DNA from: a virus
Taxonomy: Duplodnaviria > Heunggongvirae > Uroviricota > Caudoviricetes
Virus record (IMG/VR): IMGVR_UViG_2734482588_000007
Strand: one strand, 5' to 3'
DNA length: 4,508 nt
Shown: positions 1 to 4,508 of the stretch, piece by piece
Layout of the letters: every line of letters begins with the position of its first letter
Position numbering within the stretch: position 1 is the first letter of the stretch
Made by a program: the position numbers and the translations under genes
Notes under the pieces: model-generated
What the model was told of the DNA's origin: nothing
The model's input: only the letters and a program-made list of their open reading frames with translations
Database searches by the model: none

Positions 1-61
1 GAACCGTTCTGACAGCTTCGGCTTTGAACTCTTTAGAGTAACGTTGGGTTTTTCTGCTCAT
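1..61 (-). CDS. IS3-family transposase OrfA, N-terminal 20 codons only (gene continues beyond the left window edge)
   Basis: Reverse complement of 1-61 reads ATG AGC AGA AAA ACC CAA CGT TAC TCT AAA GAG TTC AAA GCC GAA GCT GTC AGA ACG GTT = MSRKTQRYSKEFKAEAVRTV. The Y-S-x-E-F-K-x-E-A-V motif is the typical N-terminus of IS3-family OrfA (HTH) proteins; from memory it resembles IS600-type OrfA. A strong SD (minus-strand AGAAGGAG, plus 69-76) sits about 8 nt upstream of the ATG (plus 59-61). Partial, so absent from the ORF track. Confidence 0.6.
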   Translation of the reverse strand, partial: MSRKTQRYSKEFKAEAVRTV

Positions 62-125
62 TATTAGCTCCTTCTGATGCCATTCTATTTCAGGAAGGAG
101 TGTCCGTTAAACTCAGGCTACCTCA
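1..125 (-). mobile_element. Partial IS3-family insertion sequence (left end: terminal repeat, orfA leader and orfA start); boundary approximate
   Basis: About 64 nt lie between the orfA ATG and a candidate terminus. The minus strand read from position 125 begins TGAGGTAGCCTGAGTTTAACGGACAC, which has the TGA-start, CTGA-TTT-containing style of IS3-family terminal inverted repeats. An alternative end is TGAGTTTAACGG from position 115. The other IS end is outside the window, so the inverted repeat and target duplication cannot be confirmed. Confidence 0.45.
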
Positions 126-802
126 GGTTATTCGCTTCTGGGCATGGGCGGATCAACAAATGATAGACGGTAATGCAGATTGTAACGCTCGCGGCGTTAC
201 AAAAAGTGCAATAGATCGCATCACTTTTATGTCTGGTTTTGCTGATGCGTTAATTCAGGTTGGATGGCTGGTCGAAAATGACGGAGGGCTTTCTCTACCT
301 AACTTTGAACGTCATAACGGAAAAAGCTCTAAAAAAAACGGGCGGTTACAAACGAGCGAGTAACAAAAATACGCGAACTGAAACGAAAAGGTAACGCTGC
401 CAGCGTTACACAAACGGATCAAAAAGCGTTACCAGAGGAAGAGGAAGAGGAAGATCTAAATACTGATCTCCCCCTCGCCAAAAACGAGCGTCTAAAAAAT
501 TCGAGCCGGAGGCTATTGAGCTGCCCGATTGGTTGCCGGAAACACTCTGGCATGAGTGGGTCCGGTTCAGACAGGCATTGCGAAAACCGATTCGAACGGA
601 GCAGGGCGCTAACGGGGCGATACGGGAACTGGAAAAATTCCGTCAGCAGGGTTTTACACCTGAGCAGGTGATTCGACACAGCATCGCCAATGAATACCAG
701 GGCCTGTTCGCGCCGAAAGGTGTTCGGCCTGAGACGTTGCTCCGACAGGTTAACACCGTCTCGTTGCCGGACAGTGCGATCCCGCCAGGCTTCAGGGGGT
801 AA
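126..802 (+). pseudogene. Phage replication initiator (replisome organiser) with DnaT-like C-terminal domain; 5'-truncated by the IS and interrupted by two -1 frameshifts
   Basis: Protein-like coding runs in frame 1 (126-339, VIRFWAWADQQMIDGNADCNARGV...HNGKSSKK), then frame 3 (333-~497, RAVTNERVTKIRELKRKG...EEEEEEDLNTDLPLAKNERLK), then frame 2 (~497-802, FEPEAIELPDWLPETLWHEW...). The C-terminus VNTVSLPDSAIPPGFRG* closely matches the E. coli DnaT C-terminus as I recall it (NTVSEPDSQIPPGFRG). Frame switches coincide with A8 (331-338) and A6 (494-499). The gene sits directly upstream of a DnaC-like gene, as in the host dnaT-dnaC arrangement. No valid start: the ORF-track GTG at 100 lies inside the IS end and abuts the SD-like sequence. 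Confidence 0.6.
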
Positions 803-808
803 CGGACC

Positions 809-1555
809 ATGAAAAATATTGCGACAGGCGGCGTTCTGGAACGCATCCGCCGACTGACCCCGCCACATGTAACCGCCCCATTCAGAACGGTAGCGGAGTG
901 GCGCGAGTGGCAACTTGCTGAAGGCCAGAAACGTAGCGAGGAGATCAACCGCCTGAATCGCCAGTTGCGGGTGGAAAAAATTCTGAATCGCTCAGGCATC
1001 CAGCCGTTGCACCGTAAATGCTCGTTTGCGAATTACCAGGTGCAGAACGACGGCCAGCGATACGCGTTAAGCCAGGCGAAATCCATCGCCGATGAACTGA
1101 TGACCGGGTGTACAAATTTTGCGTTCAGCGGAAAACCTGGTACCGGGAAGAATCACTTAGCGGCAGCTATCGGGAATCGCCTGCTGAAAGACGGTCAGAC
1201 AGTGATTGTGGTTACCGTGGCTGATGTTATGAGCGCCCTGCACGCCAGCTATGACGACGGGCAGTCAGGCGAAAAATTTTTGCGGGAGCTGTGCGAAGTG
1301 GATCTGCTGGTTCTTGATGAAATTGGCATTCAGCGCGAGACGAAAAACGAGCAGGTGGTGCTGCACCAGATTGTTGATCGCCGGACAGCGTCGATGCGCA
1401 GCGTGGGGATGCTGACAAACCTGAACTATGAGGTGATGAAAACATTGCTCGGCGAGCGGGTGATGGATCGCATGGTCATGAACGGCGGGCGCTGGGTGAA
1501 TTTTAACTGGGAGAGCTGGCGTCCGAATGTTAGCCATTCGAGGGTTGTTAAGTAG
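809..1555 (+). CDS. dnaC: DnaC-like replicative helicase loader (AAA+ ATPase), prophage paralog
   Basis: 248-aa ORF with SD AGGGGG (794-799) 9 nt upstream of ATG 809. Walker A GKPGTGKNHLAAAIG and Walker B DLLVLDEIG are present. Roughly 50% identical by eye across the full length to E. coli DnaC as recalled (MKN...P.H..P.F.T...NRSGI.PLH..CSF.NY.V...GQ..ALS.A...FSGKPGTGKNHLAAAI...TVAD.MSA...DLLV.DEIG.Q.E.K.E.V...QIVDRR....R..GMLTN.N...M..LLGERVMDRM.....WV.FNW.S.R), with the same length. Confidence 0.9.
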   Translation: MKNIATGGVLERIRRLTPPHVTAPFRTVAEWREWQLAEGQKRSEEINRLNRQLRVEKILNRSGIQPLHRKCSFANYQVQNDGQRYALSQAKSIADELMTGCTNFAFSGKPGTGKNHLAAAIGNRLLKDGQTVIVVTVADVMSALHASYDDGQSGEKFLRELCEVDLLVLDEIGIQRETKNEQVVLHQIVDRRTASMRSVGMLTNLNYEVMKTLLGERVMDRMVMNGGRWVNFNWESWRPNVSHSRVVK

Positions 1556-2553: not shown

Positions 2554-3240
2554 ATGACCCCAATAAACATATTTATGACAGTTGCTGATTTCAAACGGCC
2601 CAAATTGGAGCTCCCAAACGGGGCAAACAAACTACTACTGCACTCTTGCTGTGCTCCATGTTCCGGTGAGGTGATGGAGGCGCTTCAGGCCTCGGGAATC
2701 GACTACACCATCTTTTTCTACAACCCGAACATTCATCCTCAGAAAGAGTATTTAATTCGTAAGGATGAGAATATTCGCTTTGCTGAACAACACGGCGTGC
2801 CGTTTATTGATGCTGATTACGACACAGACAACTGGTTTGAACGAGCCAAAGGAATGGAATGGGAGCCCGAACGAGGGATCCGTTGCACCATGTGTTTTGA
2901 CATGCGTTTTGAGCGGACAGCGCTGTACGCCGCTGAAAATGGTTTCAGTGTGATCAGCAGTTCACTGGGCATTTCACGCTGGAAAAATATGCAGCAGGTT
3001 AACGACTGTGGGCGGCGAGCCGTCGCGCATTATCCGGGCATGGTGTACTGGGATTATAACTGGCGCAAGCAGGGCGGCTCGTCCCGTATGATTGAAATCA
3101 GCAAGCGCGAAAAATTCTATCAGCAGGAATATTGTGGCTGTGTGTATTCTCTGCGCGATACCAATCTACACCGCAAATCTCAGGGACGCCCTCTTATCAA
3201 AATTGGTCAACTCCACTACGGTAAAGAAGAGAAGGAGTGA
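2554..3240 (+). CDS. queH: QueH-like epoxyqueuosine reductase (DUF208 family)
   Basis: 228-aa ORF carrying the N-terminal motif [12 protein letters not shown] (nt ~2634-2667) and a downstream YCGC motif (nt ~3129-3140). Size and cysteine pattern match the QueH/DUF208 family as I know it. Start could alternatively be ATG 2575; neither start has a clear SD. Confidence 0.8.
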
Positions 3241-3266: not shown

Positions 3267-3582
3267 NNNNNNNNNNNNNNNNNNNNNNNNNNNNNNNNNN
3301 NNNNNNNNNNNNNNNNNNNNNNNNNNNNNNNNNNNNNNNNNNNNNNNNNNNNNNNNNNNNNNNNNNNNNNNNNNNNNNNNNNNNNNNNNNNNNNNNNNNN
3401 NNNNNNNNNNNNNNNNNNNNNNNNNNNNNNNNNNNNNNNNNNNNNNNNNNNNNNNNNNNNNNNNNNNNNNNNNNNNNNNNNNNNNNNNNNNNNNNNNNNN
3501 NNNNNNNNNNNNNNNNNNNNNNNNNNNNNNNNNNNNNNNNNNNNNNNNNNNNNNNNNNNNNNNNNNNNNNNNNNNNNNNNNN
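3267..3582. other. Run of 316 N (assembly gap or masked sequence); content unknown
   Basis: Uninterrupted n characters from 3267 to 3582. Every ORF-track entry spanning this region (poly-X translations) is an artefact. Confidence 0.99.
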
Positions 3583-4104: not shown

Positions 4105-4458
4105 ATGGCACATATACAACTGGTCAAACAAACCTCTTCCGGATTACTTCTCCCGGCGACGCCGGAGAGTTGCGATTTTCTGCATCAAATCAAAATAGGT
4201 GAGTGGATACACGCAGACTTTAAGCGTGTGTGTAACTACGCATTCCACAAGCGTTTTTTCAAACTCCTGCAACTGGGTTTCGATTACTGGACTCCGGTCG
4301 GTGGGGCGATCACGCCTCGCGAACGAAAACTGGTGTCCGGTTTCGTTGATTACCTGTGTGAATCAGTAGGCCGGGAACATACGCCAGCTCTGAGCGAAGC
4401 CGCAGAGCAATTGAGGTGTACTGGCAATAGCGGACACTACCATTTGTTCTTTTTTTAA
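4105..4458 (+). CDS. Hypothetical phage-associated protein (117 aa from ATG 4105); C-terminus possibly truncated at a T7 run
   Basis: ATG 4105 is preceded by SD GGAGA (4094-4098) with 6 nt spacing. The ORF-track TTG start at 4063 is less likely. Protein-like composition (MAHIQLVKQTSSGLLLPATPESCDFLHQIKIGEWIHADFKRV...). The ORF ends FFF* inside TTTTTTT (4450-4456). No family confidently recognised. Confidence 0.45.
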   Translation: MAHIQLVKQTSSGLLLPATPESCDFLHQIKIGEWIHADFKRVCNYAFHKRFFKLLQLGFDYWTPVGGAITPRERKLVSGFVDYLCESVGREHTPALSEAAEQLRCTGNSGHYHLFFF

Positions 4459-4508
4459 GCAGCCATCTGATGATATTTTTCCCTGAAGGCTGCCGGGGAG
4501 ATATTCCC

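Follow-up and report, generated by a model that had tools for sequence, protein, structure and literature searches.

The window, by which is meant the whole 4,508-nucleotide stretch of viral DNA analysed here, begins in one copy of the insertion sequence IS600 and ends in another. Between them lie a broken gene, an intact gene for a DnaC-like helicase loader (ydaV) and further prophage genes (Table 1). By sequence similarity, positions 126-802 are assigned to a lambdoid-phage replication-initiator gene of the YdaU family (PHROG 2509), of which they represent the 3' six-sevenths, and every unmasked base of the window agrees with Shigella sonnei GCA_000815825.1 (100% identity). In the initial annotation, this segment was described as a DnaT-like replication gene with two -1 frameshifts, both located at poly-A tracts, and it was proposed that the addition of one A to each run would restore a continuous reading frame. 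The analysis described below compares the segment with intact homologues, with other assemblies of the same locus and with known systems of decay and recoding.

Table 1. Features of the window, with positions counted from its first nucleotide.
Positions	Strand	Feature	Basis
1-125	-	Left end of IS600, with the terminal inverted repeat TGAGGTAGCCTGAGTTTAACGGACAC… and the start of transposase orfA	Megablast; comparison with locus L005
126-336	+	Pseudogene segment 1, frame 1, approximately codons 36-104 of the intact 262-aa predicted initiator	Alignment and tblastn
331-338	+	A8 homopolymer, lesion 1, frame 1 to frame 3	2 bases longer than the intact A6
339-468	+	Pseudogene segment 2, frame 3, RAVTNERVTKIRELKRKGNAASVTQTDQKALPEEEEEEDLNTDLPL	Translation and tblastn
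435-452	+	(GAAGAG)n run coding an acidic EEEEEE stretch	Length varies among the fetched assemblies
469-475	+	Single TCCCCCT, scar of lesion 2, frame 3 to frame 2	Alignment; 10-bp deletion (TCCCCCTAAA) between two 7-bp direct repeats
470-802	+	Pseudogene segment 3, frame 2, PPRQKRASKKFEPEAIELPDW…IPPGFRG and stop, C-terminal domain of the predicted initiator	tblastn
494-499	+	A6 tract, same as in intact genes, not a lesion	6 A in every sequence examined
809-1555	+	ydaV, intact DnaC-like helicase loader, 248 aa	NF009043 1-248 of 248, 510 bits against a cutoff of 389
4412-4508	-	One end of another IS600 copy, oriented like the first, truncating a DUF1367 gene and bounding the window	TGAGGTGTACTGGCAATAGCGGACAC identical to the other IS600 end in L005; L005 gene table

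Identity of the interrupted gene

Translation of the forward frames showed frame 1 to be open to approximately position 336, frame 3 from 339 to approximately 515 and frame 2 from approximately 468 to the stop codon at 800-802. When the intact 262-amino-acid homologue was aligned with the window by tblastn, residues 33-105 fell on 118-336 in frame 1 (97% identity), residues 104-162 on 333-512 in frame 3 and residues 152-262 on 467-799 in frame 2 (99% identity), with E-values from 1e-76 to 9e-63 for the three pieces. From this three-piece map, the frame order 1, 3, 2 given in the initial annotation is real and lies far beyond chance.

In a megablast search of 5,426 complete Escherichia coli genomes, the region 125-1600 was found at up to 99% identity in lambdoid/Rac-type prophages. 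In E. coli FDAARGOS_944 and COL60J, the counterpart gene is a single ORF of 789 nt encoding 262 amino acids and is situated between a ydaT-family gene and ydaV. The proposal that one continuous gene underlies the fragments is therefore borne out by the E. coli homologues, in which this 262-residue ORF is uninterrupted, and the DNA of the pseudogene is approximately 99% identical to these intact 789-nt genes.

The intact protein aligned with PHROG 2509, annotated as 'replication initiation protein', over residues 1-262 against positions 1-277 (E = 1e-89), and the RefSeq name for one close homologue is 'phage replication initiator YdaU family protein'. Pfam searches with the intact 262-residue protein and with both fragments gave zero matches, so the assignment to a family is based on PHROGs and a RefSeq product name; on this basis, the intact gene is predicted to belong to a phage replication-initiator family (PHROG 2509, YdaU family). 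The earlier label 'DnaT-like' is appropriate for the last 19 residues (…SLPDSAIPPGFRG), which resemble the C-terminus of the E. coli primosomal protein DnaT: residues 244-262 match positions 161-179 of the 179-position DnaT profile NF002770. The label does not extend to the whole protein, the remainder of which has no match to DnaT. Membership of the DnaT family was rejected, as the score of 16.2 bits is far under the curated NF002770 cutoff of 201 and concerns these 19 C-terminal residues only.

The three lesions

A three-way DNA alignment of the window and the two intact E. coli genes contained exactly two indels within the gene: an insertion of two bases in the A-run and a deletion of ten bases at a direct repeat. 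The A8 and A6 tracts described initially are both present at their given positions, and alignment and tblastn agree in placing the first shift at A8, which is the longest homopolymer of the window. The intact homologues have A6 at this site, so that the run in the window is longer by two, and the peptide that they encode across it is …GKSSKKRAVTNERV… rather than …SSKKKRAV….

The second frame change had been assigned to the A6 tract, which is unaltered in the intact homologues, where it forms the codons AAA AAA for the two lysines of …RASKKFEPE… (SKKF). Homology in frame 2 starts at position 467, 27 nt upstream of the A6 tract, from which it follows that the site had been misplaced by about 25 nt; the true change lies at 469-475, 19-25 nt upstream of the tract. 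In the DNA alignment, the intact genes read GATC-TCCCCCT-AAA-TCCCCCT-CGCC, and the window lacks ten of these bases (TCCCCCTAAA), namely one copy of the repeat together with the spacer. The peptide '...LAKNERLKKFEPE...' reconstructed by adding an A to the run is consequently an out-of-frame artefact, the true sequence being '...DLPLNPPRQKRASKKFEPE...', also written 'LNPPRQKRASKKFEPE'. Likewise, the assumption of an ancestral A9/A7 state, with one A missing from each run, was contradicted by the aligned intact homologues, which have A6 at the first site and A6 plus ten extra bases at the second.

A third lesion, an IS600 insertion, had been overlooked when the sequence was read on its own. Homology to the intact gene starts at 125-126, and a megablast search matched positions 1-125, at 98-99% identity, with plasmid records that carry the annotation 'IS3-like element IS600 family transposase'. 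In locus L005, the element is 1264 bp in length (TGAGGT…ACCTCA), is flanked by a 3-bp GGT target duplication and is inserted after nucleotide 107 of the coding sequence, with the first 107 nt, including the ATG, on its far side. Identity, terminal TG…CA inverted repeats and the 3-bp target duplication thus all agree with IS600. The start codon and 35 codons are cut from the rest of the gene in this manner, and the 5' fragment is called in L005 as a 41-residue ORF that runs into the element. The GTG at position 100 that had been taken as the start of the ORF ('MSVKLRLPQ') is located inside IS600, which has cut off the true 5' end.

At the other end of the window, the second IS600 copy shortens the DUF1367 gene to 117 aa, against 199 aa elsewhere. 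The presence of IS600 at both ends, together with the occurrence of the pseudogene ORF on contigs of 2-5 kb in 397 of 481 index blocks, gives the window the appearance of a complete short-read contig bounded by IS600 repeats.

In three short-read assemblies (L010, L013 and L014, at 7100-9962), the IS600 on the left side of the pseudogene is joined not to the 5' fragment of the gene but to a Rac-type module with a 285-residue DUF1376 YdaU and a truncated YdaV. This junction reflects either a recombination event between prophages, mediated by IS600, or a chimeric assembly.

Distribution and length variants

All ten fetched assemblies, which are of S. sonnei type and whose contigs range in length between 55 kb and 4.86 Mb (several exceeding 4.7 Mb), have A8, a single TCCCCCT and the unchanged A6. 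A diagnostic ORF of 87 residues (100-363), which covers the A8 frameshift as well as the IS600 junction, was found on 492 contigs, all of them named S. sonnei; a 67-residue version of this ORF was found on 73 further contigs, and the 41-residue 5' fragment fused to IS600 on 344 contigs. Among complete E. coli genomes, none of the 132 that matched the A-run region has a run longer than A6 and none of the 551 that matched the repeat region has the 10-bp deletion. A scan of genome contigs that allowed A6 to A9 returned two loci only (L003 and L004, an S. flexneri and an E. coli), both with A6 and undeleted. The lesions are therefore confined to S. sonnei-type sequences in the data examined, and the locus is a lineage-fixed pseudogene in a prophage remnant riddled with insertion sequences.

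The A-run itself shows rare variants. Three contigs, one of them of 4.8 Mb, carry an A7 form of the IS600-fused ORF. An in-frame A9 (…SSKKKRAV…) occurs in three contigs labelled S. sonnei (L015 1755-2161, L016 1561-1967 and L017 1431-1868), which are without IS600 at nucleotide 107 and two of which are 99.9% identical to L005 upstream. After …GATCAAAAAGCG (approximately window position 428), L017 carries another IS600 insertion, oriented the opposite way, and L015 and L016 end at this point, as if the gene had been hit a second time independently. Exact look-up of the A9 and A6 versions of the IS600-fused ORF, and of a minus-strand ORF of 164 residues, showed these to be absent from the collection. 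The existence of A7, A8 and A9 variants indicates that the length of the run has been altered repeatedly and that the run is not perfectly stable. A path from A6 through an in-frame A9 to A8 is plausible. The initial suggestion of adding one A to the run is thus incorrect for the family, which has A6 and for which A9 was rejected as the ancestral state, and perhaps correct for the immediate precursor of A8, given the S. sonnei A9 contigs. The (GAAGAG)n run varies as well, around 10330-10380 in L007-L009, L011 and L012: the window and five of the assemblies have 15 nt, whereas four assemblies have 33 nt and the remaining one has 39 nt.

A separate observation concerns the scar of the deletion. 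At least 27 S. sonnei short-read contigs (L018-L023, position 1) have their first base precisely where the TCCCCCT scar ends on its 3' side, at approximately window positions 474-477, and the downstream prophage contexts differ among them. These starts could be due to an additional copy, without the deletion, within the same genome or to another IS insertion.

Prophage context and candidate origin repeats

The downstream DnaC-like gene was described as intact in the initial annotation, and the full-length match to NF009043 confirms this. YdaV also matched Pfam IstB_IS21 (71 bits) and PHROG 50, and the identical protein was found on at least 1000 contigs. Its survival beside a dead initiator, which had been singled out as worth noting, needs no special explanation, as a target of 747 nt has yet to be hit. 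The surrounding 20 kb in S. sonnei form a prophage remnant that adjoins modABC/acrZ and contains several insertion sequences, namely more than one IS600 as well as other IS3-type and IS110-family transposase genes, together with truncated phage genes.

Two further features lie downstream. An intact gene for the epoxyqueuosine reductase QueH occupies window positions 2554-3240, between the replication module and hokD. At 3267-3582, 316 N stand in place of the 410 nt (L005 13168-13577) that carry the hokD (Hok/Gef, PF01848) toxin locus, in the identical S. sonnei contig, so that the N run falls short of the real sequence by 94 nt.

The heptamer GCGTTAC has six copies in the window against an expected 0.38, and five of the copies are inside the initiator pseudogene. 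These five, at 180-202, 391-409 and 426-432, make up the palindromes TTGTAACGC-N5-GCGTTACAA and GTAACGCTG-N1-CAGCGTTAC, plus a half-site, in a stretch rich in A-tracts; positions 344-351 and 359-367 are also of note here. The lambda ori is located within gene O and, by analogy, the GCGTTAC repeats may be putative origin repeats inside the initiator gene.

Discussion

The interpretation that best accounts for these data, with a probability of roughly 0.93, is that the locus is a dead initiator pseudogene in an S. sonnei prophage remnant and carries three independent lesions: the IS600 insertion, the two-base extension of the A-run and the 10-bp deletion. The 1264-bp IS600 is inserted after coding nucleotide 107 with duplication of GGT. 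Replication slippage would account for the change from A6 to A8, which shifts the frame, and slipped mispairing between the 7-bp TCCCCCT direct repeats for the loss of 10 bp, which shifts the frame again. In a prophage that no longer replicates, such lesions would have accumulated neutrally, and the pseudogene, carrying all three of them, is expected to give no functional product. One of the readings offered initially, namely that slipped-strand mutations have inactivated the gene and made it a pseudogene within a decaying prophage, was thus correct in kind and mistaken in detail, as one of the two lesions, not both, lies at a poly-A tract and the IS600 was missed.

Two other readings were offered at the same time. 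According to the first, the gene is in reality intact and the frameshifts are homopolymer errors of sequencing or assembly; in its favour, A8 is the longest homopolymer in the window, and the three A7 contigs, one of which is as long as 4.8 Mb, do show that assemblies differ on the length of this run. However, the same A8 and the same 10-bp deletion recur in ten assemblies with contigs of up to 4.86 Mb, and the diagnostic ORF on 492 and 73 contigs; furthermore, the second lesion is a 10-bp deletion rather than a homopolymer miscall, and the insertion of IS600 alone has already broken the gene. An artefact of this type is therefore extremely improbable for the locus, although homopolymer errors at the run could be present in a small share of individual assemblies. 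According to the second, the A-runs serve for programmed -1 ribosomal frameshifting or for transcriptional slippage, by which a full-length initiator would be obtained from three frames. Both runs are part of formal X XXY YYZ heptamers, A AAA AAC (333-339, frame 1) and A AAA AAT (494-500, frame 3), -1 slips at which would produce the continuous reading of the initial annotation, and some slippage of RNA polymerase can be supported by A-runs. Against this, the homologues have one uninterrupted ORF with A6 in frame, and the shifted, two-frame arrangement is not conserved among the intact homologues examined, with none of 132 and none of 551 E. coli genomes showing the shifts. Were a slip to take place at 494-500, the conserved NPPRQKRAS would be exchanged for an out-of-frame AKNERL, the true change being at 469-475, and the start codon and first 35 codons would still be separated from the frameshifted part by 1264 bp of IS600. 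The predicted RNA structure downstream of A8 (340-415, -14.4 kcal/mol) is insignificant, with z = -1.09, and that downstream of A6 (501-576, -30.6 kcal/mol) is marginal, with z = -1.95 and 10 of 200 shuffles folding as well; the sequence downstream of A6 is, moreover, identical in the intact genes. Transcriptional slippage in enterobacteria generally involves an A/T run of about 9 or more, and a slippage site was rejected here, since the run is A8, the homologues have A6 in frame and a conserved, frame-restoring long run was not found. Programmed recoding therefore has next to no probability.

The variable tracts raise the question of whether the A-run and (GAAGAG)n are contingency tracts by which the initiator is switched on and off in S. 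sonnei populations. Related sequences do show A-runs of 6, 7, 8 and 9 and (GAAGAG)n runs of 15, 33 and 39 nt. However, A8 is overwhelmingly dominant, being found on 565 contigs, whereas the A7 form of this IS600-fused ORF is found on three, and the A9 ORF (P0003), on two to three contigs, is without that IS600 and belongs to contigs in which the gene has a different IS600 insertion. No run length could rescue the function while the IS600 insertion and the 10-bp deletion persist, and repeats of varying length are to be expected in a dead gene under neutral drift. Phase variation is accordingly considered very unlikely. A similarly small probability attaches to two more speculative possibilities: that the unstable tracts among the candidate origin repeats form a mutable switch, or that the surviving pieces, namely the 89-residue C-terminal ORF and YdaV, have a host-relevant activity through low-level -1 slippage at A AAA AAC.

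With the locus read as a pseudogene with three lesions, the analysis has some value for annotation, in that the S. sonnei 'hypothetical or bacteriophage proteins' of 87 and 89 residues are fragments of one dead gene, one of which begins within IS600. It also offers a lesson, namely that a reading of sequence alone may pin a frameshift on the nearest homopolymer when the true cause is the deletion of a nearby direct repeat. The biological weight of the finding is small, as it represents one more example of the well-documented decay of Shigella genes.

Comparison with known systems places the locus as follows. In the lambdoid/Rac-type replication module, which consists of a YdaU/lambda O-like initiator and a YdaV/DnaC-like loader, the gene order cro-ydaT-initiator-ydaV is identical to that found here, whereas the initiator gene is broken at the present locus; in addition, Pfam DUF1376 is present in the 285-residue Rac-type YdaU and has no match in the 262-residue protein. 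Heptamers of the A AAA AAG type are programmed -1 sites in E. coli dnaX and in the orfAB of IS911 and the IS3 family. The locus shares with these a formal slippery heptamer at both A-runs and two shifts that are both -1, but here the arrangement is unconserved, the second shift is off the heptamer, a convincing stimulatory structure is lacking and the start is cut off by IS600.

The closest parallel is provided by the IS and indel pseudogenes of Shigella. In S. sonnei, 50% of pseudogenes have been attributed to IS insertion, a further 12% of interrupted genes have both an IS and other inactivating mutations, and IS600 is among the five insertion sequences that have expanded in Shigella (Hawkey et al., 2020; PMC7373316). 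The present case shows no substantial difference from these; it concerns a prophage gene rather than a metabolic one, so that its loss has no obvious adaptive meaning. The host, S. sonnei, and the element, IS600, are the same, and the combination of an insertion sequence with frameshifting indels corresponds to the 12% class (PMC7373316), so that the feature is of a kind already known, namely the decay of Shigella genes through IS insertion followed by small indels.
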